Of a stretch of DNA of 64,000 nucleotides, positions 8,931 to 56,747 are shown one piece after another. Made by a program: the position numbers and the translations under genes. The stretch is from Clostridia bacterium (GTDB lineage Bacteria; Bacillota; Clostridia; Oscillospirales; Acutalibacteraceae). The stretch spans positions 13,340-77,339 of the forward strand of contig JAKSQC010000001.1 of NCBI GenBank assembly GCA_024404325.1, read 5' to 3'. Position 1 is the first letter of the stretch; each line of letters opens with the position of its first letter. The notes beneath the pieces are model-generated. The model worked only from the letters and a program-made list of their open reading frames with translations. It ran no database searches and was not told the DNA's origin.

Positions 8931-9072
8931 TTTTCAACCTTCTTAAGCAAAAATGCATTTAAGATATTATAACACTATTTTCCATTTTAATCAAGTTTTT
9001 TATATTCATTCATAATTTTGTTATATTTATGACATATAATACCAAAGTAAACCCTACCGAGAGGAGAAAATT

Positions 9073-24488: not shown

Positions 24489-24780
24489 TTTTCTCCGTTT
24501 CCGACAAGTTGTCAAGTGCTATTCTGTATCCGTTTGAGCCGTAGGTAAGGCAACGGTTTACCCTGCTGATAGTTGCAGTACTTACCCCCACCTTTTCGGC
24601 TATCTTTTGATAACTTAACCCCTCGTCTAAAAGTATAGCGGTATCAAAACGCTGTGCCATATCCTGAATTTCTTTTATGGTACACAAATCGTCAAAAAAC
24701 GCCTCACATTCTTTGGGTGTCTTTATATTCGATATTGCCTTGAAAAGCCTTTGTATTGACCTGTTTTGATAATTAGGCAT
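24472..24780 (-). CDS. TrpR-like YerC/YecD-family DNA-binding protein, first gene of the his operon (HisR-type candidate)
   Basis: 102 aa from ATG 24780 (SD GGGAG). It has the family-typical LCTIKEIQDMAQRF and YQKIAEKVGVSTATISRVNRCL helix-turn-helix. It overlaps the hisZG start by ~14 nt, suggesting translational coupling. Confidence 0.75.
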   Translation of the reverse strand: MPNYQNRSIQRLFKAISNIKTPKECEAFFDDLCTIKEIQDMAQRFDTAILLDEGLSYQKIAEKVGVSTATISRVNRCLTYGSNGYRIALDNLSETEKNDDGE

Positions 24781-26032: not shown

Positions 26033-26061
26033 TTGACATACGGTGTTTAGTGTGGTAATAT
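26033..26061 (+). promoter_or_regulatory. Sigma-A promoter P1 (drives T-box 1)
   Basis: TTGACA, 17 nt, then TAATAT preceded by TGG (extended -10). Confidence 0.65.
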
Positions 26062-26069
26062 AATTGCAA

Positions 26070-26339
26070 ATTTTAAAGGCTATGACGAAGACGGCTTTGC
26101 TTTTTTATTCAAGAGAGCGGATGTTTGGTGCAAATTCCGTATAAAAAATCAAAACAGCCCATCACTTCCGAGCCGGATAGCTGAAAATCACAGTAGGCGT
26201 ATCCCGTGATTGCTGCGTAAAGGCATAAGGGTTGTCAGACCCTGAGTGGCAGTATTTACTGCAATTTGAGTGGTACCGCGAGTGTATGAATTTTTCCACA
26301 CCCGTCTCAAAGCAAATGTTTTGAGACGGGTGTTTTTTT
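26070..26339 (+). promoter_or_regulatory. T-box leader 1, specifier AUC (Ile)
   Basis: Stem I base GGCT/AGCC has K-turn TGA..GA, an AGAGAG bulge and a GGTGCAA distal loop. The specifier layout is ATC-A-CTTCC-GA-GCC, with ATC at 26161-26163. The T-box sequence AATTTGAGTGGTACCGCG lies at 26263-26280. The terminator CACCCGTCTCAAA/TTTGAGACGGGTG (26299-26332) is followed by T7. Confidence 0.9.
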
Positions 26340-26355
26340 GCAGGAGGACTTTAAA

Positions 26356-28623
26356 ATGTCGACAGTAAAATCAAACAAACTAATGGAAGTTGCAACACGT
26401 ATTCGTGAAATGCGTCAGATTTTCGGTTTTACCGAAGAAGAAATGGCACAAAAAACCGAAGTGACTTTAAGTGAATATCAAGACTATGAAACAGGAAAAC
26501 TTGATTTTCCTTTTACCTTTATTCATAAATGTTCTCTTGCTTTTGGAATAGGAATTACAGACCTGCTTGAGGGACAAAGTGCCCACCTTTCGTCATATAC
26601 GGTAACAAGAAAAGGTCAAGGTACGCAGACGGCGGAAGAAGACGGCATTGAAATACGCAACTTAGCACCAATGTTCCGTAATAAGATAGCAGAACCTTAT
26701 TGGGTTAAATATGAATATAGTAAAGAACTTCAAAACAAGCCAATTCATTTAACAAAACATTCGGGACAGGAATTTGACCTTGTACTCAAAGGCAGACTGA
26801 AAGTACAAGTAGGTGATAATATAGAGTATTTAAGCGAGGGTGACAGTATCTACTACAACAGTTCTACCCCTCACGGTATGATTGCGGTAGACGGGGAAGA
26901 ATGTTTGTTTGTAGCGGTAGTTCTCCCCGGTGCTAATCAGGAAGAAATACTTATAAGAGATACCCTGCTGACGTCAAAAAACCACAACAAGAAACTTGTC
27001 AGCGAAAAGTTTGTAAGTGTTAAGGAAAATCAGGACGGCTATCCTATATCCATTAACTTTAAGAATGAAGACAAATTTAATTTTGCATTTGATATAGTAG
27101 ACGAGATAGCGAAACGTGAGCCTGACAAACTTGCCTTACTTCACATTTCACAGGATAAAACCGAACGCAGATTTACTTTTAACGATATTAAACGTGCGTC
27201 CAATCAGTGTGCAAACTACTTTAAGTCACTCGGCATTAAAAAGGGTGACAGGGTAATGTTGGTACTCAAACGCCACTATGAATTTTGGTTTTCAATCATT
27301 GCACTTCATAAATTAGGTGCAATAGTAATACCCGCAACAAATCAACTTCAAAAGCACGATTTTGAATATAGATTTAAAGCGGCAGGAGTAAGTGCGATAG
27401 TATGCACTTCCGACGGCGATGTTGCAAATCAGGTTGACTTGGCGTCTGAAAACTACCCCCAACTCACAACAAAAATAATAGTGGGCACAAAAAGAGACGG
27501 TTGGCACAACCTAAAGGAAGAATACAACATTTACAGTGCACACTTTTACCGCACCGAAGATACCCCCTGCGGAAACGAGCCTATGCTTATGTTCTTCACT
27601 TCGGGTACTACGGGATATCCTAAAATTGCAACCCACACATATAAATACCCGTTAGGTCACTATTTAACGGCTAAATATTGGCACGGAGTAAGTGATGACG
27701 GACTTCACCTTACAATATCCGATACGGGTTGGGGTAAAGCGTTATGGGGTAAACTCTACGGTCAGTGGCTATGTGAGGGAGCAGTATTTGCCTATGACTT
27801 TGACCGTTTCGATGCAAGCGAGATACTTCCGATGTTTGCAAAATATCAAATAACAACATTTTGTGCGCCGCCGACAATGCTTAGAATGATGATAAAACAG
27901 GATATATCGCATTATGACTTTTCATCCGTAAAGCGTATGACAACGGCAGGTGAGGCACTTAATCCTGAGGTTTACCGTCAGTTTGAAAAGGCGACGGGAC
28001 TTCAAATTATGGAGGGTTTCGGTCAAACCGAAACCACGCTTACCGTTGCAAACTTTATGGGCGGTTCTCATAAATTAGGTTCTATGGGCAGACCGTCACC
28101 GCTTTATGATATAGATATTATAAATGCCGAGGGCAAAAGCGTTGCAGACGGTGAAACGGGCGAAATCGTAATACGAACAGACAAAGAAGTCCCCTGCGGA
28201 CTGTTTACGGGATACTATAAAGACGAGCAAAAGACAAAAGAGGTATGGCATGACGGATATTACCACACGGGTGATTCGGCGTGGCGTGACGAGGACGGAT
28301 ATTATTGGTACGTAGGTAGAGTTGACGACGTAATCAAGTCTTCGGGTTACAGAATAGGGCCGTTTGAAATTGAAAGCGTTATTATGGAACTGCCTTACGT
28401 TTTAGAGTGTGGAGTATCTGCCGCCCCCGACGAGGTAAGAGGACAGGTAGTAAAAGCAAGCATTGTTCTTGTAAACGGCACTAAGCCTTCAGAGGAACTT
28501 AAAAAGGAAATTCAAAATTACGTAAAAACCCATACTGCACCTTATAAATATCCGCGTATAGTCGAGTTCAAAGACAGTCTGCCTAAAACTGTTAGTGGAA
28601 AAATACAGAGAAATCTGTTATAA
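26356..28623 (+). CDS. Three-domain fusion: XRE HTH + cupin + AMP-forming (medium/short-chain) acyl-CoA synthetase
   Basis: ATG 26356 lies 8 nt after AGGAGG. Residues ~10-75 are HTH_3-like. Residues ~100-195 are a cupin (HSGQEFDLVLKG...GDSIYYNSSTPHGM). The remainder has adenylate-forming motifs FTSGTTGYPK, GFGQTE, YHTGD, GRVDDVIKSSGYRIGPFEIE and PKTVSGKIQR. Confidence 0.9.
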   Translation: MSTVKSNKLMEVATRIREMRQIFGFTEEEMAQKTEVTLSEYQDYETGKLDFPFTFIHKCSLAFGIGITDLLEGQSAHLSSYTVTRKGQGTQTAEEDGIEIRNLAPMFRNKIAEPYWVKYEYSKELQNKPIHLTKHSGQEFDLVLKGRLKVQVGDNIEYLSEGDSIYYNSSTPHGMIAVDGEECLFVAVVLPGANQEEILIRDTLLTSKNHNKKLVSEKFVSVKENQDGYPISINFKNEDKFNFAFDIVDEIAKREPDKLALLHISQDKTERRFTFNDIKRASNQCANYFKSLGIKKGDRVMLVLKRHYEFWFSIIALHKLGAIVIPATNQLQKHDFEYRFKAAGVSAIVCTSDGDVANQVDLASENYPQLTTKIIVGTKRDGWHNLKEEYNIYSAHFYRTEDTPCGNEPMLMFFTSGTTGYPKIATHTYKYPLGHYLTAKYWHGVSDDGLHLTISDTGWGKALWGKLYGQWLCEGAVFAYDFDRFDASEILPMFAKYQITTFCAPPTMLRMMIKQDISHYDFSSVKRMTTAGEALNPEVYRQFEKATGLQIMEGFGQTETTLTVANFMGGSHKLGSMGRPSPLYDIDIINAEGKSVADGETGEIVIRTDKEVPCGLFTGYYKDEQKTKEVWHDGYYHTGDSAWRDEDGYYWYVGRVDDVIKSSGYRIGPFEIESVIMELPYVLECGVSAAPDEVRGQVVKASIVLVNGTKPSEELKKEIQNYVKTHTAPYKYPRIVEFKDSLPKTVSGKIQRNLL

Positions 28624-28637
28624 TTTATAAAAAGGTC

Positions 28638-28666
28638 TTGACAAATTAAAAAAGCAGTGGTATTAT
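28638..28666 (+). promoter_or_regulatory. Sigma-A promoter P2 (drives T-box 2)
   Basis: TTGACA, 17 nt, then TATTAT preceded by TGG. It starts 15 nt after the ACS1 stop. Confidence 0.65.
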
Positions 28667-28672
28667 ATCACT

Positions 28673-28988
28673 TAATTAAAGACTTTGACGAAGAGTGTAT
28701 AAAAATACGTCCTATGCCAAAGCATTTAAACTTGAACTTGAATGTTTTGGCATCAGAGAAATGACGGTTGGTGCAAGTCATCGGAAACGGTTTTTATATT
28801 TGTAGCTTCCGAGTCGGGAAGAAGAACGGGCAAAACCTTAGTAGAACTTCTCCGTGATTGCTGCGTAAATGCATAAGGGTTGTCAGACCCTGAGTGGCAG
28901 TATTTACTGCAATTTGAGTGGTACCGCGGGTGTTTAAGATTATCACACTCGTCTCAAAGTTATCATTGCTTTGGGACGGGTGTTTTTG
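28673..28988 (+). promoter_or_regulatory. T-box leader 2, specifier GUA (Val)
   Basis: Stem I base GACT/AGTC has K-turn TGA..GA, an AGAGA bulge and a GGTGCAA loop. The specifier layout is GTA-G-CTTCC-GA-GTC, with GTA at 28802-28804. The T-box sequence lies at 28911-28928. The terminator (28947-28959 / 28969-28981) is followed by T5. Confidence 0.9.
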
Positions 28989-29015
28989 TATGTCCGTCCG
29001 GAAAGGTTGAGAAAT

Positions 29016-31313
29016 ATGGGACAAAATAACGGTCTTGATTTTAAAATCAAAGAAATGTCTTCAAGAATTCGCGAACTTCGTGAAATCACGGGTTATACAA
29101 CCGAAGAAATGGCGAAAAAGACCGACGTCAGCACCGAGGAATATATAAAATGCGAAAACGGGGAGGCAGACCTTAACTTTGCTTTTATTTACCGTTGTGC
29201 CATTGCCTTTGGTGTGAACGTTACCGATATTATTGAAGGTGTAAGCCCGACGCTTACTTCTTATACTCTTACAAGAAGCGGTCAAGGTCAAAAGATAGAC
29301 CAAGCACACGGAATGGTATACTATAATTTAGCGGCTGCTTTTCAAAACAGAATAGCAGAGCCTTTATACGTTTGCAGTGCATACAGTGAAGAGGCACAAC
29401 ATAAAGATATAGAGTTGACAACACATTCAGGACAGGAATGTGATATAGTAGTTTCAGGTCATCTTACGGTGCAGGTAGGCCGCCACAAGGAAACATTGGG
29501 ACCCGGCGACAGTATTTATTATGACAGTTCCACACCTCACGGTATGATTGCGGTAAACGGTGAAGACTGCATATTTTACGCAATAGTACTTAATCCTACG
29601 GGCGAGCCGATACCCGAACTTTCAAGTACGGTTGAAAATGTTACTTTAAAAGAAACAAAACCGTCCAAAAAGGATAATAAGGAAAGAATATACCGTAAGT
29701 TTATAGACACCGAGGTTGACGAAAACGGCACACCTACAAAAATAACGTTTAAAAATGAAGATAAGTTTAATTTTGCATTTGATTTGGTGGACGCACTTGC
29801 AGACCGCGAACCCGATAAACTTGCAATGCTTCATATATCAAGGGATATGACAGAACGCCGTTTTACCTTTAAAGATATAAAAAAGGCATCTAATCAGTGT
29901 GCTAACTATTTTAAGTCTTTGGGCATTAAAAAAGGTGACAGAGTAATGCTTTGTCTTAAGCGTCACTATCAATTCTGGTTCTGTATGTTAGGTCTTAATA
30001 AACTCGGTGCTGTTGCGATACCTGCCGTAAATCAGTTGCAGGAACACGATTTTGAGTACCGTTTTAAGTCTGCCGGTATAAGTGCGGTTATTTGTACTGC
30101 CGACGGCGACACTGCACATCAAATGGACTTGGCGGCGGAAAAATGTCCCGACCTTACGATAAAACTTATAGTAAACGGTACGCGTGAGGGTTGGAAAAAC
30201 TTTGACGAAGAATACCCCCTTTTCAGCACACATTTTAAAAGAACCGCCGATTCACCCTGCGGTAATGACACTATGATTATGTATTTTACGTCGGGTACTT
30301 CGGGTTATCCGAAAATCGCAACCCATTCTCATAAGTATCCTTTAGGGCATTTCCATACTGCAAAGTATTGGCATCACGTTGACCCTGACGGACTTCACCT
30401 TACAATATCCGATACCGGTTGGGCAAAGGCTATGTGGGGTAAACTTTACGGACAGTGGCTATGCGAGGCGGCAACCTTTGTTTATGACTTTGACCGTTTT
30501 GATGCAAGCGAAATACTGCCGATGTTCGCAAAGTATAATATTACTACTTTTTGTGCACCGCCTACAATACTCAGAATGATGGTTAAGCAGGATATATCAA
30601 AGTATGATTTTTCATCGGTAAAGCATATGACTACGGCGGGAGAGGCGCTTAACCCCGAAGTTTACCGTCAGTTCAAAAATGCTACGGGACTTAAAATTAT
30701 GGACGGTTTCGGTCAAACCGAATCGACTATGATTATAGGAAATCTTGTAGGTATGCAACATAAATTAGGCTCTATGGGTAAACCCGCACCTATTTATGAC
30801 GTTGACCTTATTGATGAAAACGGTAACACGGTAGCCGTAGGCGAAACAGGTGAAATTGTTATAAACGTTAAAAACGGTGCACCTTGCGGACTGTTTAAGG
30901 GTTATTATAAAGACGAAGAAAAAACCAAAGAGGTCTGGCACGACGGATATTACCACACGGGTGATTCTGCGTGGCGTGATGAGGACGGATACTATTGGTA
31001 CGTAGGCAGAGTTGACGACGTAATCAAGTCTTCGGGTTACAGAATAGGGCCGTTTGAAATCGAAAGTGTTATTATGGAACTGCCTTACGTTTTAGAGTGC
31101 GGCGTATCAGCCGCCCCCGACGAGGTAAGAGGACAGGTAGTAAAGGCAAGCATTGTTCTTGTAAACGGCACTAAGCCTTCAGAGGAACTTAAAAAGGAAA
31201 TTCAAACTTATGTTAAAACACATACCGCACCTTATAAATATCCTCGTATAGTAGAATTCCGCGACAGTCTGCCTAAGACGGTTACGGGTAAAATACAAAG
31301 GAACAAACTTTAA
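29016..31313 (+). CDS. Paralogous XRE HTH + cupin + AMP-forming acyl-CoA synthetase fusion
   Basis: Same three-domain order as 26356-28623. Has FTSGTSGYPK, GFGQTE and YHTGD. The C-terminal ~115 aa are identical to the paralog. The start is ATG 29016; the ORF track start 28971 lies inside the T-box terminator. Confidence 0.9.
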   Translation: MGQNNGLDFKIKEMSSRIRELREITGYTTEEMAKKTDVSTEEYIKCENGEADLNFAFIYRCAIAFGVNVTDIIEGVSPTLTSYTLTRSGQGQKIDQAHGMVYYNLAAAFQNRIAEPLYVCSAYSEEAQHKDIELTTHSGQECDIVVSGHLTVQVGRHKETLGPGDSIYYDSSTPHGMIAVNGEDCIFYAIVLNPTGEPIPELSSTVENVTLKETKPSKKDNKERIYRKFIDTEVDENGTPTKITFKNEDKFNFAFDLVDALADREPDKLAMLHISRDMTERRFTFKDIKKASNQCANYFKSLGIKKGDRVMLCLKRHYQFWFCMLGLNKLGAVAIPAVNQLQEHDFEYRFKSAGISAVICTADGDTAHQMDLAAEKCPDLTIKLIVNGTREGWKNFDEEYPLFSTHFKRTADSPCGNDTMIMYFTSGTSGYPKIATHSHKYPLGHFHTAKYWHHVDPDGLHLTISDTGWAKAMWGKLYGQWLCEAATFVYDFDRFDASEILPMFAKYNITTFCAPPTILRMMVKQDISKYDFSSVKHMTTAGEALNPEVYRQFKNATGLKIMDGFGQTESTMIIGNLVGMQHKLGSMGKPAPIYDVDLIDENGNTVAVGETGEIVINVKNGAPCGLFKGYYKDEEKTKEVWHDGYYHTGDSAWRDEDGYYWYVGRVDDVIKSSGYRIGPFEIESVIMELPYVLECGVSAAPDEVRGQVVKASIVLVNGTKPSEELKKEIQTYVKTHTAPYKYPRIVEFRDSLPKTVTGKIQRNKL

Positions 31314-31315
31314 TT

Positions 31316-31981
31316 ATGGAAAACTTTAAGCGTATTACCCTTTTGTGCGGTCACTACGGAAGCGGTAAAACAAATATCGCGGTCAATATGGCATACGAAC
31401 TTAAAAAGAAATATTCAAATGTTGCCATAGCCGACCTCGATATAGTAAACCCGTACTTTCGCACCAAGGACAGCATAAAAGAGTTTGAAAAAAGGGATAT
31501 AAAGTTAATTTGCTCAAAATATGCAGGCTCTAATGTAGATATACCCGCCCTCCCACAGGAGATGTATGCACTTACAGACGATAGGCAAATGCACTGTATA
31601 ATAGACGTCGGCGGGGACGACAGAGGTGCGTTGGCACTCGGTCGCCTATCCCCTGCAATAAAAGAAGAAAACGATTATGATATGCTTATGGTTATAAACT
31701 GTTACCGTCCGCTGACGCGTGACGTACCCTCAACCATAAATATTATGCGTGAAATAGAAACCGCTTCGGGTATTAAGTTTACAGGTCTTATAAACAACTC
31801 AAATTTAGGTAAGCTTACAACAAAGCAAACGGTTATCGATTCACTTAAATTTGCCGACGGTGTTTCAAAGGCTTCGGGACTTCCGATATTTTGCACCGCA
31901 GTAAAACAAGGTTTATTTGACAGAAAAGACGGCAGTTTAAAAAACGTCTTTCCGATAGAACTTCAAGAAAACATATACTGA
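31316..31981 (+). CDS. Uncharacterised SIMIBI-class P-loop NTPase (CooC/GPN-loop-like)
   Basis: 221 aa with Walker A GHYGSGKT, DLDIVNPYF, Walker-B-like IIDVGGDD and an NNSN block. It starts 2 nt after the ACS2 stop. Confidence 0.7.
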   Translation: MENFKRITLLCGHYGSGKTNIAVNMAYELKKKYSNVAIADLDIVNPYFRTKDSIKEFEKRDIKLICSKYAGSNVDIPALPQEMYALTDDRQMHCIIDVGGDDRGALALGRLSPAIKEENDYDMLMVINCYRPLTRDVPSTINIMREIETASGIKFTGLINNSNLGKLTTKQTVIDSLKFADGVSKASGLPIFCTAVKQGLFDRKDGSLKNVFPIELQENIY

Positions 31982-31996
31982 TAAGGAGCGATGAAT

Positions 31997-32203
31997 ATGG
32001 CAAAACTTAAGTTCAAAACAGATTTTTGTAAAGGTTGCGGACTGTGTGTAGACGCTTGTCCAAAAAAACTGTTAAAACTCGCAACCGACAAAATCAATAA
32101 AAAGGGACATCATCCGGCAGAAATAACCGATCAAGATTCCTGTACGGGTTGCACAAGTTGTGCAATAATGTGTCCGGACTGTGTAATAACGGTAGAAAGG
32201 TAA
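31997..32203 (+). CDS. 2-oxoacid:ferredoxin oxidoreductase delta subunit (2x[4Fe-4S] ferredoxin)
   Basis: Has CKGCGLCVDACP and CTGCTSCAIMCP motifs. ATG 31997 lies 8 nt after AGGAG. Confidence 0.85.
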   Translation: MAKLKFKTDFCKGCGLCVDACPKKLLKLATDKINKKGHHPAEITDQDSCTGCTSCAIMCPDCVITVER

Positions 32204-32211
32204 GTGAAATT

Positions 32212-33273
32212 ATGGCTGATAAAGTACTTATGAAAGGTAACGAAGCCTTAGCGGAAGCCGCAATATTAGCAGGTTGCCGTCACTACTTCGGTTATCCTAT
32301 CACCCCGCAGACAGAGGTTGCGGCTTATATGGCAAAAAAGATGCCGAAAATCGGCGGAACGTTTTTGCAGGCGGAAAGTGAAATTGCCGCTATAAATATG
32401 GTATACGGTGTTTCTTCGGCAGGTCACCGCGTTATGACATCATCTTCAAGCCCCGGAATTTCCTTAAAGGGCGAGGGAATATCATATCTTGCCGGTGCAG
32501 ACCTTCCTGCACTCGTAGTAAACGTACAGCGTGGGGGTCCGGGACTCGGAGGCATACAACCGAGCCAGTCCGACTATTTTCAGGCTACAAAGGGTGCCGC
32601 ACACGGCGACTTCCATATGATAGTATTAGCACCTGCATCTGTTCAGGAAATGGCAGAGCTGACCATTAAGGGATTTGAACTTGCAGACAAGTACAGAATG
32701 ACCTCTATGATTTTGGCAGACGGTACTATGGGACAGATGATGGAACCTGTTGACCTTGATTTTAAAATCACACCCGAACCCGAAAAGCCTTGGGCAACTA
32801 CGGGTACAAAACTCAAAAGAAATCATAACATAGTAAATTCTCTTTCCCTTGTTCCCGAAGAACTTGAACAACTCAATATAGCACGTTATGAGCGTTATAA
32901 GACGGTTGAAGAAAACGAATGTATGTATGAGGAATACTTAGTAGACGATGCCGATATAGTGCTTGTAGCATTCGGTATTACTTCGAGAGTTTCAAAACAC
33001 GCTATTGACAATGCAAGAGAACAAGGCGTAAAGGTCGGTCTTATCCGTCCCATTACCCTTTGGCCGTTCCCGAAAGCACCATTCCAAAAGGCAGTAGGAC
33101 ACGCCAAAGCATTTATAACGGTAGAACTTAATATGGGACAGATGATAGAGGACGTTAAACTTGCAACTAATTGTAAGGTTCCGGTACATCTTTGTAACCG
33201 TGTAGGCGGTATGATTCCTGACCATACACAGGTATATGATAAAATTATGGAAATCAACGAGGAGGTAAAATAA
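32212..33273 (+). CDS. 2-oxoacid:ferredoxin oxidoreductase alpha subunit (VorB/KorA-like)
   Basis: Has N-terminal KGNEALAEAAILAGCRHYFGYPITPQTE and MTSSSSPGISL. The start is ATG 32212; the ORF track start 32149 overlaps the delta gene. Confidence 0.88.
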   Translation: MADKVLMKGNEALAEAAILAGCRHYFGYPITPQTEVAAYMAKKMPKIGGTFLQAESEIAAINMVYGVSSAGHRVMTSSSSPGISLKGEGISYLAGADLPALVVNVQRGGPGLGGIQPSQSDYFQATKGAAHGDFHMIVLAPASVQEMAELTIKGFELADKYRMTSMILADGTMGQMMEPVDLDFKITPEPEKPWATTGTKLKRNHNIVNSLSLVPEELEQLNIARYERYKTVEENECMYEEYLVDDADIVLVAFGITSRVSKHAIDNAREQGVKVGLIRPITLWPFPKAPFQKAVGHAKAFITVELNMGQMIEDVKLATNCKVPVHLCNRVGGMIPDHTQVYDKIMEINEEVK

Positions 33274-33275
33274 CT

Positions 33276-34028
33276 ATGGTAGTATTTGAAAAACCGCACG
33301 CACTTACCGACGTGCCTTTACACTATTGCCCCGGTTGTACTCACGGTATCGTACATAGGCTCGTTGCCGAAGCAATCGACGAACTCGGAATTGAGGGACA
33401 GACAATAGGTATAGCACCCGTTGGTTGTTCGGTAATGGCTTACGATTACTTTAACTGCGATATGATAGAAGCCGCTCACGGACGTGCACCGGCAGTGGCA
33501 ACAGGCGTTAAAAGAGCCGACCCCGATAATCACATAGTATTTACCTATCAGGGCGACGGTGACCTTGCTTCCATAGGTATGGCTGAAACCGTACACGCAG
33601 CGGCAAGAAATGAAAATATAACCGTTATTTTTATAAACAATGCAATTTACGGTATGACAGGCGGTCAGATGGCACCTACTTCCCTGCCCGGTCAGGTTAC
33701 ACAGACTTCTCCTTACGGCAGAGATACATCCCACTGCGGTTATCCTATTAGGGTTTGCGAAATGCTCGCAACATTAGAAGGACCCGAGTATCTTGAAAGG
33801 GTAACCGTAAATAATGTTGCTAACGTACGCAAAGCAAAAAAGGCCATTAAAAAGGCTTTCCAAAACCAAATAGATAAAAAAGGTTTTTCACTAATAGAGG
33901 TTGTATCTTCCTGTCCTACCAACTGGGGTATGACACCGCAAGACGCACTTAAGTGGATAGACGATAATATGCTTCCATATTATCCTCTTGGCGTTTATAA
34001 AGACCGTTCTGCAAAGGAGGAAAAGTAA
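33276..34028 (+). CDS. 2-oxoacid:ferredoxin oxidoreductase beta subunit (TPP-binding)
   Basis: Has a CPGCTHG cluster ligand block and the GDGDLASIG...NNAIYGMTGGQ TPP motif. Confidence 0.88.
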   Translation: MVVFEKPHALTDVPLHYCPGCTHGIVHRLVAEAIDELGIEGQTIGIAPVGCSVMAYDYFNCDMIEAAHGRAPAVATGVKRADPDNHIVFTYQGDGDLASIGMAETVHAAARNENITVIFINNAIYGMTGGQMAPTSLPGQVTQTSPYGRDTSHCGYPIRVCEMLATLEGPEYLERVTVNNVANVRKAKKAIKKAFQNQIDKKGFSLIEVVSSCPTNWGMTPQDALKWIDDNMLPYYPLGVYKDRSAKEEK

Positions 34029-34570
34029 TGAAACTTCCAATACAGTGCTTATTTTCAGGCTTTGGCGGACAGGGTATCCTGTTTTCCGGCAAATTTATGG
34101 CATATAAGGGTATGATTGAGGATAAATTTGTATCATGGCTTCCTTCCTACGGTCCCGAAATGCGTGGCGGTACCGCAAGTTGCAGTGTGGTTATAAGCGA
34201 TAGGGAGATTGCATCTCCCATTATTTCAACACCCGATATTTTGGTTGCAATGAATTTACCGTCACTTGATAAGTACGAAAAAATCGTAAAAAAAGGCGGT
34301 ACAATATTTGTTGACTCAACCCTTATCGAAAGAAAGGTTGAAAGGGACGATGTAAACGTATATTATGTCCCTGCAACCAAACTTGCAAGCGATAATAATA
34401 TGCCGACTCTTGCAAATATGATACTTGTCGGTAAAATATTAAAGGTAAGAAATGAATATTCAGAAGAAAGTGTCCGTGCGGCTCTTACAAAGGTAGTTTC
34501 CGCAAAACACGCCGATTTGCTTGAAGTCAATATGAAAGCAATGCAAATAGGTGCTTCTTACGAGGAATAA
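34028..34570 (+). CDS. 2-oxoacid:ferredoxin oxidoreductase gamma subunit
   Basis: 180 aa with GFGGQGILFSGK and YGPEMRGG blocks. Its ATG overlaps the beta stop (ATGA-type junction). Confidence 0.85.
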   Translation: MKLPIQCLFSGFGGQGILFSGKFMAYKGMIEDKFVSWLPSYGPEMRGGTASCSVVISDREIASPIISTPDILVAMNLPSLDKYEKIVKKGGTIFVDSTLIERKVERDDVNVYYVPATKLASDNNMPTLANMILVGKILKVRNEYSEESVRAALTKVVSAKHADLLEVNMKAMQIGASYEE

Positions 34571-34589
34571 CAAGAAAGGAATTATTGCT

Positions 34590-35651
34590 ATGAATATCAG
34601 AGTTGAAAACACACAGCATCCGTCATCAATGCCGGGTAGTGAATTTGGATTCGGCAGAATTTTTTCAGACCATATGTTTATGATGGACTACAATGCAAAC
34701 GAGGGTTGGCATGATGCAAGAATAGTCCCGTTTGGAAGACTTTCCATTCACCCTGCTTCCACCGTACTTCACTACGGTGCAGAGATATTTGAGGGACTTA
34801 AGGCATACCGCCGTCCCGATGGCGGAGTACAACTTTTCAGACCTATTGAAAATATCCGCCGTATGAATGATTCGGCAGAGCGTTTGTGCTTACCGCAAAT
34901 TCCCGAAGATGAAGCTATGGAAATACTCACCACATTTATCAGTCACGAAAAGGAGTGGACACCGTCAGCCCCTGGAACAACACTTTACATTCGTCCTTTC
35001 CTGTTCGGTAACGATGAATCACTCGGCGTACACGCAGTGAAGAACGCTACTTTCGTAATTATTGCATCACCTACGGGAAGTTATTATAAAGAGGGCTTTA
35101 AGCCGGTACGCATTATGATTGAAGATGAGGACGTAAGAGCAGTACGAGGCGGTACGGGTTATGCTAAATGCGGAGGTAACTACGCAGCAAGCACACGTGC
35201 AGGAGAGAGAGCCGAACAGATGGGTTATTCTCAAGTACTTTGGCTTGACGGTGTTGAGCGTAAGTACATAGAGGAAGTAGGAGCAATGAACGTTATGTTC
35301 AAAATAAACGGCGAAATCGTTACTCCTAAACTTACAGGCTCAATACTCCCCGGTATTACAAGAAAGTCCTGTATTGAACTTTTAAGAAGCAAGGGTTATA
35401 AGGTTTCAGAGCGTCTGCTCAGTCTCCAAGAACTCGTAAGTGCTATGACTGACGGCACACTCGAGGAAGCTTGGGGTTGCGGAACAGCGGCAGTAGTATC
35501 ACCTATCGGTGAGCTTTGCTATAAAGATATTAAGTACGCTATCAACGGCGGTAAAATCGGTGAGCTCACACAAAGCCTTTACGATACCCTTACGGGTATA
35601 CAGTTTGGCAGAAGTGAAGACCCGTTCGGTTGGACTGTTCGTATAGACTAA
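34590..35651 (+). CDS. ilvE: Branched-chain amino acid aminotransferase (long, ~350-aa type)
   Basis: Has FGRIFSDHMF, YGAEIFEGLKAYR, GGTGYAKCGGNYAAS, EEVGAMNVMF and PGITR blocks. Confidence 0.9.
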   Translation: MNIRVENTQHPSSMPGSEFGFGRIFSDHMFMMDYNANEGWHDARIVPFGRLSIHPASTVLHYGAEIFEGLKAYRRPDGGVQLFRPIENIRRMNDSAERLCLPQIPEDEAMEILTTFISHEKEWTPSAPGTTLYIRPFLFGNDESLGVHAVKNATFVIIASPTGSYYKEGFKPVRIMIEDEDVRAVRGGTGYAKCGGNYAASTRAGERAEQMGYSQVLWLDGVERKYIEEVGAMNVMFKINGEIVTPKLTGSILPGITRKSCIELLRSKGYKVSERLLSLQELVSAMTDGTLEEAWGCGTAAVVSPIGELCYKDIKYAINGGKIGELTQSLYDTLTGIQFGRSEDPFGWTVRID

Positions 35652-35665
35652 TCATTTAAAAAGAC

Positions 35666-35694
35666 TTGACATATAATGATTTATGTGGTATAGT
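35666..35694 (+). promoter_or_regulatory. Sigma-A promoter P3 (drives T-box 3)
   Basis: TTGACA, 17 nt, then TATAGT preceded by TGG. It starts 15 nt after the ilvE stop. Confidence 0.65.
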
Positions 35695-35700
35695 TATTAA

Positions 35701-35975
35701 AAATTTCAAATGCATTGATGGAATTATTCCTTTTTTGTATGTCTATTTCAGAGAGCCGTCGGTTGGTGCAAGACGGAAAGGCTTTAAAGGGAAGTCTCAT
35801 TTCGGAGCAGAACTGCCTGAAATTTTAGTAAGCAGTTCCGGTTTGACCCCGTTACCGTGGTCAAGGGCTTGTTTGAGCCTATTTAAGTTGACCGTTTATT
35901 CGGTAAACAGGGTGGTACCGCGGATTAAATTATTCGTCCCTGAAACTGATGTATTTCAGTTTCAGGGATTTTTTG
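35701..35975 (+). promoter_or_regulatory. T-box leader 3, specifier CUC (Leu)
   Basis: Stem I base TGC/GCA has K-turn TGA..GA, an AGAGAG bulge and a GGTGCAA loop. The specifier layout is CTC-A-TTTC-GGA-GCA, with CTC at 35796-35798. The T-box sequence GGGTGGTACCGCGG lies around 35908-35922. The terminator TCCCTGAAACTGA/TCAGTTTCAGGGA (35937-35968) is followed by T6. Confidence 0.9.
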
Positions 35976-35996: not shown

Positions 35997-37376
35997 ATGA
36001 ATAATATTAAAATTTCAGATTTAACTCTTTGTCTTGTAAGCAGTGATTTGACATTTAAGGAAAAAATAGAAATTGCAAGACAACTTGAAAAGTTACAACT
36101 TGACTGCATTGAACTTCCCGAAATCAAAAAGGTTAAATCTGATACCCTTTTTATACGCACTGTTTCTTCTTTTCTTAAAAACAGTATACTTTCGGTTTGT
36201 GCGGGAAGCAGTATAGAGAGTATAGACAATGCCGTTACGGCACTTAGTGTATGCAAAAAGCCGATGATAAGAATAGAACTTCCGGTATCAACTGTAAGAA
36301 TGGAATATGATTTTCATAAAAAAGCACCAAAAATGCTCGAATGGATAAATAAAACCGTTTGCTATGCTTCGCAAAAATGTGACGTTGAGTTTTGTGCACT
36401 TGATGCCACAAGAGCCGAGTCTGAATTTTTAATTGAAGCACTGAAAACCGCAGAGTCGGCAGGTGCAAAGATAATAACCGTTTGCGATGATGCAGGCGAA
36501 ATGCTTACCGATGAATTTACCGAATTTATAAAGCGTATAAAGAGCAATATATCAACGCCGATATACATTAACTGTAATAATAAAAACGGTATGGCACTTT
36601 CCCTTGCGGCTATTTCAATAAAGAACGGCGATGCACAAGGTGTTAAGACTTCGGTAAACGGTGACACCGTAAGTTTAGAGAATATATCAACTTTTATAAG
36701 AAACTGCGGAGAAAAACACAGTATAATATCAAATATAAGATACACAGAACTTTACCGTACTATCTCCCAAATCAAACGTATTACGGGAAATGTTACTGAA
36801 AGCAATGAAAAGACCGTATCCACAGTTACTTCAAACGATGAAATAAAACTCGATAAAAATGATGACAAAAACACCGTAATCACAATGGTGGCAAGACTCG
36901 GTTATGACCTTTCAAAAGAGGATGAAGACAATGTTTATGAGCAGTTTTTGCGTGTAGCCGATAAAAAGACAGTCGGAGCAAAGGAACTTGATGCGATAGT
37001 AATCAGTTCTGCTTTACAAGTACCGCCCACCTATAAACTTGATAATTATATAGTAAACAGCGGTAATTCTATTTCCTCAAGTGCACAGGTAACGCTTAAA
37101 CACTTTGACAGTGTAACTCAAGGCATAAGCATAGGCGACGGACCTATTGACGCCGCATTTTTGGCTATTGAGCAGATAATAGGTTGTCACTACGATTTAG
37201 AGGACTTCCAAATTCAAACCGTAACCGAGGGCAAAGAGGCAATCGGTTCTGCAATAATCAAACTGCGTTCGGCAGGTAAAATATATTCAGGCAACGGCAT
37301 TTCAACCGATATAATAGAGGCAAGCATAAGGGCGTACTTAAACGCACTTAACAAAATTGCCTACGAGGAGGTATAA
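35997..37376 (+). CDS. 2-isopropylmalate synthase-like protein with degenerate active site (pseudoenzyme) and intact LeuA C-terminal regulatory domain
   Basis: It is colinear with LeuA along its whole length, but the catalytic motifs are replaced: DTTLRDGEQ becomes DLTLCLVSS, HCHNDLG becomes NCNNKNG, and GIGERAGN becomes NGDTVSLEN. The C-terminus (GDGPIDAAFLAIEQI..., ISTDIIEASIRAYLNALNK) matches the LeuA_dimer/allosteric domain. Confidence 0.8.
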   Translation: MNNIKISDLTLCLVSSDLTFKEKIEIARQLEKLQLDCIELPEIKKVKSDTLFIRTVSSFLKNSILSVCAGSSIESIDNAVTALSVCKKPMIRIELPVSTVRMEYDFHKKAPKMLEWINKTVCYASQKCDVEFCALDATRAESEFLIEALKTAESAGAKIITVCDDAGEMLTDEFTEFIKRIKSNISTPIYINCNNKNGMALSLAAISIKNGDAQGVKTSVNGDTVSLENISTFIRNCGEKHSIISNIRYTELYRTISQIKRITGNVTESNEKTVSTVTSNDEIKLDKNDDKNTVITMVARLGYDLSKEDEDNVYEQFLRVADKKTVGAKELDAIVISSALQVPPTYKLDNYIVNSGNSISSSAQVTLKHFDSVTQGISIGDGPIDAAFLAIEQIIGCHYDLEDFQIQTVTEGKEAIGSAIIKLRSAGKIYSGNGISTDIIEASIRAYLNALNKIAYEEV

Positions 37377-37378
37377 CG

Positions 37379-39916
37379 GTGAAATTTTCTTTTTCCACAA
37401 AGGGTTGGCATAACTGTACCTTTGAAGATTTTGTAAGAATTGCAAATGAGCTTCAGTTTCAGGGTATAGAACTGCATAACATCCATAACGAGGCATTTAC
37501 CAAAAAAGGCGGTGCTTTACACGATTATACTGCGGCGGCTACTTTGCGTTATTTAAAAGAAAAAAATCTTTCACTGCCGTGTGTTGATGCGATAGGCGAC
37601 ATTGCAAGTGCCGACAGTGCTGATAATTTAAAGCAGGAAATTTCGCAGTGTATAGAGGTTGCATCACATCTTAAAATTTCATATATAAGGCTAAAGGCGG
37701 AAAAAAGTGACGATATAGATACTGCTACCAAAAACGTAATAAACCTTTTAGAGCAGATGCTACCCATCGCCGAGCAGGAAAATATCACTTTTCTTATTGA
37801 AACTTCTGGACTTTTTGCAAGTTCACTTAAACTCAGGGATATACTCGAATATTTTGCATGTGATAATTTGGCGGCTTTATGGAATTTATCCGATGCTTAT
37901 TTTGAAGCAGGAGAGAGTGCAGAAGAAATAATAAAGAATTTAGGTGCTTATGTACGCCACGTTCACGTAAACGATGCCGTTAAAACCGAAAACGGTACAA
38001 ATTACTGTCTTTTAGGCGAGGGAGAAGTTCCGTTTGAAGAAATTATGCTTGCCTTAAAATCGGTTAATTATGACGGCTTTTTATCGCTTGTATGGGACCC
38101 TGCTTGGTGCGAGGAACTTGACGATATTGAAATACTGTTTTCACAGTTTACAAATTATATGAAGCAGTTTGGCACAACCTACCGCAGGAATAAAACACTT
38201 TATTATAACAAGGCACGCACAGGCGAATTTGTATGGAAAAAAGACCTGCTTATAGACGAAACGTTTTCGCAGGTTCTTGACAGAATGGTTGAGGAATTCC
38301 CCGACCAATATGCCTTTAAGTATACAACACTTGATTACACAAGGACATATTCACAATTCCGTGATGATGTAAATACCTTTGCAAGAGCGTTAGTTGCACT
38401 CGGTGTTAAAAGCGGTACACACGTAGCGGTTTGGGCATCAAATGTACCGCAGTGGTATATAGCCTTTTGGGCGACGGTAAAGTTAGGTGCGGTTCTTGTA
38501 ACGGTAAATACCGCATACAAAATTCACGAGGTAGAGTATCTTTTAAAGCAGTCTGATACGCATACAATAATTATGACGCAGGGTGCTAAAGATACAAACT
38601 ACGGTGAAATTATTGCACAGCTTTGTCCTGAACTTGAAAACAAGAAACCATCTGGGCACCTCCACGCACGCAAACTGCCGTTTTTGAGAAATGTTATTAC
38701 CGTGGGATTTCGTCAAAAGGGTTGCCTTATGTGGAATGATGCATTAGAATTTTCATCACAGGTATCGCTTGAAACGGTAAACCGTATGGCAGATAGTGTA
38801 AATCATAATGACGTATGCAATATGCAGTATACTTCGGGTACAACGGGATTTCCTAAGGGCGTTATGCTGACGCATTATAATATAGTAAATAACGGTAAAT
38901 GTATAGGCGACCGTATGGACTTATCAACTGCTGACAGAATGATGGTACAAGTGCCTATGTTCCACTGTTTTGGAATGGTACTTGCAATGACGGCTACTAT
39001 GACGCACGGCGGTACGCTTTTACCTCTGCCCTATTTCTCACCGAAACCCGCACTTTCCTGTATAAACAACGAAAGAATAACGGCATTTCACGGTGTTCCC
39101 ACAATGTTTATAGCCCTCCTTGAGCACCCCGACTTTGCAAAAACCGACTTTTCTTATATGCGTACGGGAATTATGGCAGGAAGTCCGTGTCCTATTTCTG
39201 CTATGCGTGACGTTATTGATAAAATGAATATGCGTGACATAACAATAGTTTACGGTCAGACCGAAGCCTCCCCCGGTTGTACTATGAGTTCTACCGATGA
39301 TTCCATAGAGATAAGGGTGGGTACTGTCGGCAGACCTCTGCCAGAAATTGAATGTAAGATAGTAGACCCCGAAACGGGAGAAGAATGTCCTATAGGTGTT
39401 ACGGGTGAGTTTATAGCACGCGGTTATAATATAATGAAAGGCTATTATAAAATGCCTAAGGCCACAGCATCTGCCATTGACGCTAAAGGTTGGCTTCACA
39501 CCGGCGACCTTGCCTGCAAAACCGAGGACGGCAACTTCCGTATTACGGGCAGACTTAAAGATATGATAATAAGGGGCGGAGAAAATATCTATCCAAAGGA
39601 AATAGAGGAATTTATTTATACGCATAAAAAGGTCAGTGACGTTCAGGTTGTAGGCGTTCCCGACGAGCAGTACGGCGAGGAAATTTTAGCCTGCATTATA
39701 TTAAAAGAAAACGAGCAAATGACCGTTGATGAGATGAAAACGTATATTGCGGAAAATATGGCACGTCATAAAGTACCGAAATATATTGAGTTTGTGTCCG
39801 AATTTCCGATGAACGCCGCAGGCAAAATTTTGAAATATAAAATAAGAGAGGATGCTGTTAAAAAGTTGGGTTTAAACGCAAACGACAGCATAGTTATGGA
39901 CAATGGTAAACGGTAA
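37379..39916 (+). CDS. Fusion of xylose-isomerase-like TIM barrel (AP_endonuc_2-type) with a FadD-like AMP-forming acyl-CoA ligase
   Basis: Uses a GTG start 7 nt after GAGGAGG. The N-terminal ~270 aa are TIM-barrel-like (GIELHN..., IRLKA..., FLIETSG, HVHVND, SLVWDP). The C-terminal ~560 aa carry YTSGTTGFPKGV, VYGQTE, LHTGDL and GRLKDMIIRGGENIYPKEIE. Confidence 0.85.
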   Translation: MKFSFSTKGWHNCTFEDFVRIANELQFQGIELHNIHNEAFTKKGGALHDYTAAATLRYLKEKNLSLPCVDAIGDIASADSADNLKQEISQCIEVASHLKISYIRLKAEKSDDIDTATKNVINLLEQMLPIAEQENITFLIETSGLFASSLKLRDILEYFACDNLAALWNLSDAYFEAGESAEEIIKNLGAYVRHVHVNDAVKTENGTNYCLLGEGEVPFEEIMLALKSVNYDGFLSLVWDPAWCEELDDIEILFSQFTNYMKQFGTTYRRNKTLYYNKARTGEFVWKKDLLIDETFSQVLDRMVEEFPDQYAFKYTTLDYTRTYSQFRDDVNTFARALVALGVKSGTHVAVWASNVPQWYIAFWATVKLGAVLVTVNTAYKIHEVEYLLKQSDTHTIIMTQGAKDTNYGEIIAQLCPELENKKPSGHLHARKLPFLRNVITVGFRQKGCLMWNDALEFSSQVSLETVNRMADSVNHNDVCNMQYTSGTTGFPKGVMLTHYNIVNNGKCIGDRMDLSTADRMMVQVPMFHCFGMVLAMTATMTHGGTLLPLPYFSPKPALSCINNERITAFHGVPTMFIALLEHPDFAKTDFSYMRTGIMAGSPCPISAMRDVIDKMNMRDITIVYGQTEASPGCTMSSTDDSIEIRVGTVGRPLPEIECKIVDPETGEECPIGVTGEFIARGYNIMKGYYKMPKATASAIDAKGWLHTGDLACKTEDGNFRITGRLKDMIIRGGENIYPKEIEEFIYTHKKVSDVQVVGVPDEQYGEEILACIILKENEQMTVDEMKTYIAENMARHKVPKYIEFVSEFPMNAAGKILKYKIREDAVKKLGLNANDSIVMDNGKR

Positions 39917-40709
39917 ACTTTTTGTTATTGATGCACACTGCCACGTCTACCCCGATAAAATTGCAACCATAGCATCGGGCAATACCGACCGTTTTTACGA
40001 TACAGTATCTAAACACGATGGCAAGGTGGGTACGCTCCTTGATTTAAAAGAGGAAAGCGGTATAGACCGCTTTTTGGTGCAGTCAGTAGCAACCACGCCG
40101 AAACAGGTACAAAGAATAAATCAGTTTATTGCCGATACCGTAAATAACAGTAACGGTATTATGACGGGACTTGGTACTCTCCACCCTGACAGTGCAGATT
40201 TAAAGGCGGACGTAATGCAAATAAAGCAACTTGGTCTTCACGGGGTAAAACTGCACCCCGATATCCAACAGTTTAAAATTGATGATTACAGATGTCTTAA
40301 AATTTATGAACTCTGCGAGCAGGAAAATTTACCTGTTCTTATGCACACGGGTGACAACAGATATGATTTTTCCAATCCAAACCGTCTTTTACCCGTTATA
40401 AAAATATTTGATAAATTAACCCTTGTAGCCGCCCATCTCGGCGGATATTCGGTGTGGGAAGAAGCAGTACAAAAACTTGCAGGTATTAAAAATCTGTATT
40501 TTGACTGTTCATCATCATTTTTTTGGTTAAACCCAAAACGTGCAAAGGAGATAATTGAAATTTACGGTACTGACCGTGTATTATTCGGAAGTGACTATCC
40601 GATGTGGTCGCCCAAAGCAGAACTTGATACCTTGTTATCTCTTGGCTTTGGCGATGATGATTTAAAGATGATTTTATCTGAAAATGCTAAAAAAATTTAT
40701 AATATTTAA
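39903..40709 (+). CDS. Amidohydro_2-family metal-dependent TIM-barrel enzyme (hydrolase/decarboxylase superfamily)
   Basis: Has IDAHCHVYP (HxH), LHPD, MHTGD, AHLGG and FGSDYP. It overlaps the upstream gene by 14 nt. Confidence 0.8.
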   Translation: MVNGKLFVIDAHCHVYPDKIATIASGNTDRFYDTVSKHDGKVGTLLDLKEESGIDRFLVQSVATTPKQVQRINQFIADTVNNSNGIMTGLGTLHPDSADLKADVMQIKQLGLHGVKLHPDIQQFKIDDYRCLKIYELCEQENLPVLMHTGDNRYDFSNPNRLLPVIKIFDKLTLVAAHLGGYSVWEEAVQKLAGIKNLYFDCSSSFFWLNPKRAKEIIEIYGTDRVLFGSDYPMWSPKAELDTLLSLGFGDDDLKMILSENAKKIYNI

Positions 40710-56653: not shown

Positions 56654-56747
56654 TGGCGGAGATGGAGAGATTCGAACTCTCGAGAACGCTTTAACGTCCT
56701 ACACGATTTCCAATCGTGCGCCCTCGACCGGACTAGGCGACATCTCC
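56654..56747 (-). tRNA. tRNA-Ser (anticodon GGA), class II with long variable arm, CCA encoded
   Basis: On the minus strand the 94-nt sequence is GGAGATG...CATCTCC-G-CCA. It has a 7-bp acceptor stem, an anticodon stem CACGA/TCGTG with loop TTGGAAA, a variable stem GGACG/CGTTC, and a T-arm GAGAG-TTCGAAT-CTCTC. Confidence 0.93.

Follow-up and report, generated by a model that had tools for sequence, protein, structure and literature searches.

A T-box-gated oxidoreductase operon of uncultured Clostridia as a candidate gene set for making branched-chain amino acids from branched short-chain fatty acids

The present work deals with a 64,000-nucleotide stretch of DNA (the window; positions 13,340 to 77,339 of contig JAKSQC010000001.1, assembly GCA_024404325.1) from a Clostridia bacterium of the family Acutalibacteraceae, and specifically with a gene cluster within it that encodes the delta, alpha, beta and gamma subunits of a 2-oxoacid:ferredoxin oxidoreductase (OFOR) and the aminotransferase IlvE. 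The results presented here indicate that OFOR and IlvE probably carry out the last two steps of a salvage route by which branched-chain amino acids (BCAAs) arise from the branched short-chain fatty acids of the rumen and hindgut. These habitats supply isoacids (viz. isobutyrate, 2-methylbutyrate and isovalerate) at millimolar levels, together with high CO2 and reduced ferredoxin.

According to the proposed mechanism, if uncharged tRNA-Val binds to a T-box leader in front of the operon, by pairing with its GUA specifier and UGGU bulge, then the antiterminator would be stabilised and RNA polymerase would enter a unit of seven genes. The first of these encodes an acyl-CoA ligase (ligase 2), which would convert isobutyrate, ATP and CoA into isobutyryl-CoA; OFOR (delta-alpha-beta-gamma) would then combine isobutyryl-CoA with CO2 and reduced ferredoxin to yield 2-oxoisovalerate, which IlvE would transaminate to valine. 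Two adjoining units, gated by Ile and Leu leaders, would add ligases for 2-methylbutyrate and isovalerate, whose CoA esters would be handled by the same OFOR and IlvE. Gene content, operon structure, the identity and specifiers of the T-boxes, conservation among species, family membership and pocket residues are direct observations. What we infer from them are the substrates of each ligase, the range of substrates taken by OFOR, its direction in vivo, the ferredoxin donor and the roles of the accessory proteins and modules described below.

The direction of the oxidoreductase is central to this proposal. A sequence-only reading of the cluster had argued, from the T-box, for a VOR-type specificity and for the carboxylating direction in vivo. 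This view now gains stronger and independent support from the presence of an AMP-forming ligase as the first gene of the operon, from the family to which this ligase belongs, from the pairing of T-boxes with ligases, and from the lack, in the oxidoreductase pocket, of the basic residue of 2-oxoglutarate enzymes. As the ligase spends ATP in making an acyl-CoA from the free acid, its activity is useful only if OFOR consumes the acyl-CoA, and an ATP-spending ligase, an OFOR and a transaminase placed under a starvation switch are compatible with carboxylation only.

Gene order, T-box leaders and conservation of the operon

The sequence-only reading had described the four OFOR subunit genes and the IlvE gene as tightly packed behind a Val T-box. 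The packing is as described, since in the table of open reading frames (ORFs) the gaps between the delta, alpha, beta, gamma and IlvE genes are 8, 2, -1 and 19 nt, with beta and gamma overlapping at ATGA, and all five genes are intact. The T-box is likewise real, but it is located at 28676-28959, which is 3 kb upstream and outside the coordinates given in that reading, and it is separated from delta by two genes that the reading had not listed, encoding ligase 2 (29016-31313) and a P-loop protein (31316-31981). Ligase 2 is followed after 2 nt by the P-loop gene, and the gap from the P-loop gene to delta is 9-15 nt, depending on whether delta starts at ATG 31991 or 31997 (the gene call gives 68 aa, with two CxxCxxCxxxCP motifs). 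The alpha ORF opens at TTG 32149, and the ATG at 32212 gives a protein beginning with MADKVLMKG whose 353 aa match the length of its homologues. A promoter and terminator scan revealed no credible terminator between 29016 and 35651. The seven genes (ligase 2, P-loop, delta, alpha, beta, gamma and IlvE) and the Val leader in front of them form one transcription unit.

This unit is the middle one of three T-box-gated units, which follow each other head to tail on the + strand from 26033 to 35975, with no terminator after ligase 1 (the ligase of the Ile-gated unit) or after IlvE. In a consensus scan of this strand between 25.8 and 42 kb (a 16-kb region), the three best promoters and the three best terminators were exactly those of the three leaders. 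As no terminator separates the units, the leaders act as gates in series, and read-through from one unit meets the terminator of the next leader, resulting in a serial Ile, Val, Leu gate.

The three leaders differ in how strongly they match the Rfam T-box model RF00230, for which the gathering score is 93. The Leu leader, downstream of IlvE, is the sole T-box of the window above this threshold (35706-35944, 111.6 bits). The Ile leader (26073-26312, 88.9 bits, E 1.4e-18) and the Val leader (28676-28959, 74.6 bits, E 6.6e-15, covering the full model from 1 to 219) were detected by an E-value search on the + strand and not at the gathering threshold. The Stem I of the Val leader carries a 39-nt hairpin insert (28717-28755), which the Rfam model treats as an insertion and which probably accounts for the score below the gathering value. 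The specifier loops of the three leaders read AUC-A (Ile), GUA-G (Val) and CUC-A (Leu). In the Val leader, GUA-G is followed by CUUCCGAG, the T-box sequence AAUUUGAGUGGUACCGCG is found at 28909-28928, and the terminator hairpin (28945-28983, 16 bp) leads into TTTTTGT. All three leaders have a promoter close to the consensus, a UGGU bulge, which fits an A73 discriminator, and a hairpin of 14-16 bp with a T run.

The assignment of the leaders to specific amino acids was examined in related genomes, where T-box sequences were located by pattern and 121 leaders were aligned with MAFFT, anchored on the window sequences. The specifier column of this alignment reads ATC (Ile) in all 47 leaders preceding ligase-1-type genes, GTA, GTC or GTG (Val) in 43 of the 43 preceding ligase-2-type genes, and CTC or CTG (Leu) in 26 of the 26 preceding LeuA-like genes. 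As the changes seen in this column are synonymous, the reading frame of the specifier is fixed, and the pairing of Val, Ile and Leu T-boxes with their respective ligases is conserved, with synonymous specifier changes, in about 40-47 species per class. Three related loci (L013, L022 and L059) were searched whole with Rfam, and T-boxes were confirmed in each of them; the orthologous leader of L013 passes with 98.8 bits. One locus (L028, at about 8800-9100) has a T-box directly 5' of its P-loop gene with GCA (Ala) followed by U in the specifier column, where a Val codon and a purine would be expected, and this leader may be decayed or retargeted.

The conservation of the operon itself was examined by a locus scan with one genome per species, which provided 80 loci at 67-84% identity, and all of these nearest loci are from rumen, hindgut or faecal metagenome-assembled genomes (MAGs). 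When the window proteins were mapped onto them, most of the 80 loci had their genes arranged as ligase, P-loop, delta, alpha, beta, gamma and IlvE. T-boxes were counted in the 63 loci that have at least 4.5 kb of flank upstream of alpha. In 55 of these a T-box is present upstream, separated from delta by no genes other than those for the ligase, the P-loop protein or IlvE, and the specifier is that for Val in 39 loci, for Ile in 15 and GCA in one. The P-loop gene lies between the ligase and delta, adjoining the latter, in 57/63 loci, and IlvE follows directly downstream in 42 of the 62 loci with enough downstream flank. No T-box was detected in the other eight loci, and three of these also lack any ligase, P-loop or IlvE gene. 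Two of these three are labelled Verrucomicrobia or Lentisphaeraceae, and in them the oxidoreductase stands alone among unrelated genes (viz. FeoB, YchF, DprA and FTHFS in the Verrucomicrobia copy, L060). The pair formed by the LeuA-like gene and ligase 3 of the Leu-gated unit is also found nearby in the relatives, in variable position and orientation. An arrangement that recurs in dozens of species is more than chance, and the occurrence of the OFOR unit behind an Ile T-box in 15 genomes speaks for a general branched-chain 2-oxoacid synthase rather than a valine-specific one.

Specificity of the oxidoreductase and the ligases

The alpha subunit passes the NCBIfam subfamily model VorB (NF005507; 539.5 bits, cut-off 399) and it fails all of the KOR, POR, IOR, oxalate and Pyrococcus-type VOR models of NCBIfam. 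No model was passed by beta, for which the best score was with the KorB model PRK09628 (133 bits vs 364) and for which the Pyrococcus-type VOR model PRK11864 gave 63.6 bits (cut-off 405). The delta subunit scored 49 bits with OGOR_delta (cut-off 125), and the best match of gamma, PRK08537, is also below its cut-off (119 bits vs 235). IlvE has the Aminotran_4 domain and passes two equivalog models, PRK13357 (463.6 bits, cut-off 307) and TIGR01123 (379.1 bits, cut-off 250). Homologues of alpha number in the thousands, and the nearest, which are 86% identical, come from Clostridia, Acutalibacteraceae and related MAGs. NCBI already labels close homologues as VorB; JGI names some of them '2-oxoglutarate ferredoxin oxidoreductase subunit alpha'. 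Among solved structures, a 2-keto acid enzyme of P. furiosus (1yd7) and the 2-oxoglutarate enzymes 8ys5 and 6n2n are nearest, which places the enzyme, by its sequence, on the KOR side of the family.

More specific information is provided by the residues that line the active site. For StOFOR1 the residues around the substrate side chain have been named, and Lys49b is needed for activity on 2-oxoglutarate but not on pyruvate (PMC5020499). Pairwise alignments were made of alpha to 1yd7, 8ys5, 6n2n and 5b46, and of beta to 8ys5_C, 6n2n_B and 5b48_B. The position equivalent to Lys49b, two residues after the third cluster Cys of beta, is occupied by Arg in 8ys5 and 6n2n and by Met here (GCSVM), and it is Met, Leu or Phe in 76/76 orthologues. 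At the position of Thr349a, 1yd7, 8ys5 and 6n2n all have Thr but the window alpha has Leu, and at that of Leu123b the window beta has Met; the pocket residues contributed by beta are Met54 and Met126, and alpha contributes Leu112. The parts of the enzyme which are expected of any OFOR are in place. Alpha has the YPITP motif and Arg107 for binding of the carboxylate, and its GYPITPQ and QRGGP segments align to the Thr256/Arg344 region of StOFOR; all 80 orthologues have the carboxylate-binding YPITP, 78 of them retain the Arg-containing QRGGP, and GPGLG and YGMTGGQ are near-invariant among 76-80 orthologues. In beta, the thiamine pyrophosphate (TPP)-binding GDGD...NN is present, and CPGC, GCS and SCPT align with Cys12, Cys15, Cys46 and Cys197 of StOFOR1 beta. 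The hydrophobic character of the predicted pocket argues against 2-oxoglutarate as the substrate, but it is by itself no proof of branched-chain substrates. The VOR-type specificity claimed in the sequence-only reading is supported, in that the VorB model is passed and the basic residue for 2-oxoglutarate is lacking, with the correction that the enzyme is more plausibly of general branched-chain than of valine-specific type.

The ligases bear on the specificity of the pathway from the other side. Ligases 1 and 2 are 69% identical, and the best NCBIfam model for both is MbcS (443 and 452 bits, respectively), the second best being the acetate-CoA ligase PRK04319 (389 bits). The catalytic part of ligase 2 aligns from its residue 14 end to end with the PDB structure 3etc (about 58% identical, E 1.3e-192), the Methanosarcina acetivorans ligase reported to have a pocket that accommodates small branched acyl groups; Shah et al. 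(2009) reportedly found that it prefers small branched acids. The S. aureus enzyme MbcS is selective for 2-methylbutyrate and isobutyrate, uses isovalerate poorly and shows undetectable activity with acetate; acetate and propionate are called poor substrates of it, and it has no activity on short dicarboxylic acids (PMC10026030). The pocket of the window ligases is enlarged at three of the four positions of the Acs pocket, as ligase 2 has Ala, Ala and Gly in place of Val310, Val386 and Trp414 of E. coli Acs, and the Val310 equivalent is Gly in ligase 1. The length and motif numbering of the Acs sequence used for this alignment agree with the literature.

When 42 ligases that follow Val leaders were compared with 46 that follow Ile leaders, nine positions were found to separate the two classes. 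Eight of these are within an N-terminal module, and the catalytic domain has just one, at the Val310 equivalent, with Ala for the Val class and Gly for the Ile class. That the Ile class has one methyl group fewer in its pocket wall is consistent with isobutyrate and 2-methylbutyrate differing by one carbon. Ligase 1 is proposed to be a 2-methylbutyrate-CoA ligase and ligase 2 an isobutyrate-CoA ligase. The N-terminal module, of about 235 aa, consists of HTH_XRE and cupin_2 domains (26356-27060 in ligase 1 and 29016-29720 in ligase 2), and it is kept in the related loci, as judged by the lengths of tblastn hits. Its eight class-separating residues fall between residues 59 and 117, which suggests that the module has a class-specific sensing or DNA-binding role; perhaps it makes these proteins BirA-like enzyme/regulators or serves as a feedback sensor.

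Some other features of these two units are also of interest. The DNA sequences of ligases 1 and 2 are 56-81% identical, but the identity rises to 93-95% in a segment of about 300 nt close to the 3' end (approximately 28300-28623 vs 30990-31313). The Ile and Val leaders, the former of which precedes ligase 1, differ in Stem I, but they share a segment of about 95 nt covering Stem III and the antiterminator with one mismatch (approximately 26195-26290 vs 28850-28945). These shared segments look like the result of gene conversion between the paralogous ligase units.

Alternative explanations and points against the proposed pathway

If OFOR does not act on branched acyl-CoAs, then the cluster could serve BCAA synthesis in another manner, by making 2-oxobutyrate from propionyl-CoA or pyruvate from acetyl-CoA for the acetohydroxyacid pathway to isoleucine and valine, with the ligases activating propionate or acetate; the oxidoreductase would in this case still be carboxylating. 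OFORs are often broad in their range, the acetate-CoA ligase model is the second best for the window ligases, IlvE also ends the classical route, and the synthesis of isoleucine from propionate is established in anaerobes. However, the enlargement of the ligase pocket relative to Acs does not favour such small acids, and the kin of the ligases are MbcS and 3etc rather than Acs, MbcS being inactive on acetate. Further, no ilvB, ilvC or ilvD gene is present in the unit, among the scanned ORFs of the window or in the mapped neighbours in related loci, and the LeuA homologue encoded by the Leu-gated unit appears to be catalytically dead. Based on these considerations, we regard this explanation as unlikely.

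A second alternative is that the cluster supplies branched acyl-CoA primers for membrane fatty acids, with OFOR and IlvE running oxidatively from the amino acid to the acyl-CoA. To our knowledge, T-boxes (as in the RF00230 regulons) control genes for synthetases, biosynthesis and uptake and not those for catabolism, which counts against such a role. A T-box is on when its amino acid is scarce, and to burn valine for primers under this condition would be illogical; likewise, an oxidative VOR would duplicate the ligase of its own operon, since both would supply one and the same acyl-CoA. Thus, although S. aureus uses MbcS-like ligases for making lipids and rumen bacteria also place isoacids in their lipids (PMC7709123), this explanation is in our view very improbable. 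The reading of the cluster as a catabolic VOR was rejected on the same two grounds, viz. the logic of the T-box and the presence of an AMP-forming ligase.

It is scarcely credible that OFOR is a 2-oxoglutarate synthase (KOR/OGOR) providing glutamate as the amino donor for IlvE, for although the nearest structures and the next-best NCBIfam models are of 2-oxoglutarate or generic 2-oxoacid enzymes and some homologues carry the JGI name noted above, the scores of alpha with every KOR model are below the cut-off (PRK08659, 319 bits vs 411; OorA, 240 bits vs 579), the Arg of OGOR that is equivalent to the Lys of StOFOR1 is replaced by Met, Leu or Phe and the pocket Thr by Leu, and the partner ligase is of a monocarboxylate type whose relative MbcS is inactive on short dicarboxylic acids. 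In view of the pocket residues and the model cut-offs, the 2-oxoglutarate synthase reading was rejected.

The salvage of BCAAs from isoacids thus remains the preferred explanation of the operon, and the observations that weigh against it need to be considered together. The score of alpha with the Pyrococcus-type VOR model PRK08366 is 73 bits against a cut-off of 646; alpha and beta, by their sequences, are nearer to 2-oxoglutarate-type enzymes (1yd7, 8ys5 and 6n2n) than to the Pyrococcus-type VOR, and the name VorB rests on a subfamily model and not on an assay of the clade. For ligases 1 and 2, the scores with MbcS do not reach the equivalog cut-off of 850. In addition, the dead LeuA, the TIM barrel and the amidohydrolase of the Leu-gated unit are not needed by a simple pathway. 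No ilv or leu genes were found among 30 of the larger ORFs of the window, a result for the 64-kb window that does not settle whether the genome has them. The regulation of OFOR presents a further difficulty. The oxidoreductase is gated by tRNA-Val alone in the window and by tRNA-Ile alone in 15 genomes, which is odd if the enzyme is shared, since under a single tRNA a starvation for only Ile or only Leu would raise the corresponding ligase but not OFOR. The finding of a Val specifier in 39 genomes and an Ile specifier in 15 argues for a shared enzyme, but the regulatory logic as understood here is incomplete.

A more far-reaching interpretation, which we put forward tentatively and consider to be doubtful, is that these Clostridia make their BCAAs mainly or only from isoacids by means of a tRNA-charging regulon, in which three ligases feed a shared OFOR and transaminase, the HTH and cupin module and the dead LeuA add sensing at the protein level, and the SIMIBI-class P-loop NTPase may mature the enzyme. 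If genes for de novo ilv/leu synthesis are absent, then the locus would explain an obligate requirement for isoacids and would provide a metagenomic marker for isoacid-dependent fibre degraders.

Accompanying features and comparison with known systems

The positions of the leaders and genes of the three units are listed in Table 1.

Table 1. Leaders and genes of the three T-box-gated units, with positions in the window
Feature	Position	Strand	Characteristics
Ile T-box leader and promoter	26033-26340	+	TTGACA-17-TAATAT; AUC specifier; terminator hairpin 26298-26333, then T run
Ligase 1, HTH_XRE and cupin fused to AMP-forming short-chain acyl-CoA synthetase	26356-28623	+	HTH_19, Cupin_2, AMP-binding, AMP-binding_C
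Val T-box leader and promoter	28638-28990	+	TTGACA-17-TATTAT at 28638; GUA specifier; terminator hairpin 28945-28983, then T run
Ligase 2, HTH_XRE and cupin fused to AMP-forming short-chain acyl-CoA synthetase	29016-31313	+	765 aa; Pfam and NCBIfam
P-loop NTPase, SIMIBI class	31316-31981	+	221 aa; weak CbiA and NUBPL Pfam hits
OFOR delta subunit	31997-32203	+	68-70 aa, 2x[4Fe-4S] ferredoxin-like; Pfam Fer4 families and PorD_KorD
OFOR alpha subunit	32212-33273	+	353 aa; POR_N and PFOR_II (Pfam)
OFOR beta subunit	33276-34028	+	250 aa; TPP_enzyme_C (Pfam)
OFOR gamma subunit	34028-34570	+	180 aa; Pfam POR (PF01558), 127 bits
IlvE, branched-chain amino acid aminotransferase, class IV type II	34590-35651	+	ATG 34590; 353 aa
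Leu T-box leader and promoter	35666-35975	+	TTGACA-17-TATAGT; CUC specifier; terminator hairpin 35936-35969, then T run
LeuA paralogue	35997-37376	+	LeuA_dimer domain kept; below all LeuA cut-offs
Ligase 3, xylose-isomerase-like TIM barrel fused to FadD-type AMP-forming acyl-CoA ligase	37379-39916	+	AP_endonuc_2 and AMP-binding
Amidohydro_2 family protein	39903-40709	+	PF04909, 110 bits; 14-nt overlap with ligase 3

The first gene of the Leu-gated unit encodes a LeuA paralogue without the RDGEQ motif, its N-terminal motif being DLTLCLVSS, and HCHDD is changed to NCNNK (HxH to NxN). The catalytic motifs of LeuA are missing in all 36 orthologues of this protein, which retains the regulatory, leucine-binding domain of LeuA (LeuA_dimer), looks like a conserved pseudoenzyme and could possibly be a leucine sensor. 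Ligase 3 scored 685 bits with PRK12583 (cut-off 832), and its nearest PDB relatives are of other specificities. It is proposed to be an isovalerate-CoA ligase, and its belonging to a separate family is consistent with the observation that isovalerate is a poor substrate for enzymes of the MbcS type. The Amidohydro_2 gene trails ligase 3 in many related loci.

The P-loop protein encoded beside delta had no match in the PDB by sequence search. Its predicted model (pLDDT 85.7) has a fold matching SRP54/FtsY and ATPase-type HypB (TM 0.5-0.6), and the fold search is thus an answer at the level of the class. Its homologues are called 'hypothetical' in every source that gives a name. The protein is possibly a maturation factor for the oxidoreductase, acting in cofactor or cluster insertion.

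Two other features of the window were noted. A 527-aa ORF at the head of a his operon (22932-24515, - strand) combines a HisZ-like domain (residues 19-304) with HisG (residues 322-502) and is a fusion of the regulatory with the catalytic subunit of ATP phosphoribosyltransferase. The window has a single tRNA (56657-56747, - strand; 91 nt), with a long variable arm and the anticodon GGA (Ser), as read from the alignment, and it has no relation to the T-boxes.

The formation of BCAAs from isoacids has a long history. Allison and co-workers reportedly demonstrated isoacid carboxylation by labelling in Bacteroides/Prevotella, Ruminococcus and Megasphaera from the 1960s to 1984, without identifying genes. 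In this chemistry isobutyrate, 2-methylbutyrate and isovalerate combine with CO2 to give valine, isoleucine and leucine, respectively, and it is the basis of the isoacid feed additives used for ruminants. That isovalerate is carboxylated to leucine in the rumen is cited in PMC7356843; Allison et al. 1984 is cited in PMC7709123 (ref 61), and Allison's work also in PMC11304471. In a paper of 2020 (PMC7709123) the reverse reaction is nevertheless described as 'not proven yet', and the isoacid route is omitted from a genome-scale reconstruction, published in 2022, of amino acid biosynthesis in the gut (PMC9026213). Our literature search, in which the main T-box regulon survey was not covered, so that an earlier mention in a database or supplement is possible, found no paper that links a T-box or this operon to VOR or to isoacid assimilation. 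The pathway and the enzyme class are known, but the operon, the pairing of three T-boxes with three ligases and the argument from regulation to direction are features that we could not find in the searchable literature.

The significance of the conserved operon with its three T-boxes is that it offers a concrete gene set and marker for isoacid assimilators, which can be used for correcting false predictions of BCAA auxotrophy and for choosing enzymes for acyl-CoA carboxylation. It also provides a natural example of regulatory logic indicating the physiological direction of a reversible enzyme.

In comparison with known systems, the window locus matches the rumen isoacid pathway in its overall chemistry and habitat; however, that pathway is known without genes, whereas the window locus presents a proposed complete gene set, along with its regulation, in uncultured Clostridia. 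With VOR (EC 1.2.7.7; both the VorB of NF005507 and the archaeal VORs) the window enzyme shares the same set of delta, alpha, beta and gamma subunits and the TPP and Fe-S motifs, but it is not of the Pyrococcus type, and its context of ligase, IlvE and T-box is specific for these Clostridia, being absent at the 70%-identical copies in a Verrucomicrobia MAG. The OFORs of the reverse TCA cycle (viz. MmOGOR, 6n2n, and 8ys5) belong to the same superfamily, are the closest solved kin and provide a precedent for the net reductive carboxylation of an acyl-CoA by means of reduced ferredoxin; they differ in having Arg in beta, where the window enzyme has Met, and Ser-Thr in alpha, where it has Gly-Leu. 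The T-box-controlled ilv-leu and aminoacyl-tRNA synthetase operons of Firmicutes employ the same mechanism of specifier, UGGN and terminator-antiterminator, but the ilv-leu operons encode the acetohydroxyacid pathway, whereas the window has what would be a salvage route behind three leaders in series. Lastly, the pocket of MbcS and 3etc is enlarged as in the window ligases, with the HTH and cupin module present only in the latter, and whereas MbcS feeds lipid synthesis, ligase 2 of the window is co-transcribed with OFOR and IlvE.

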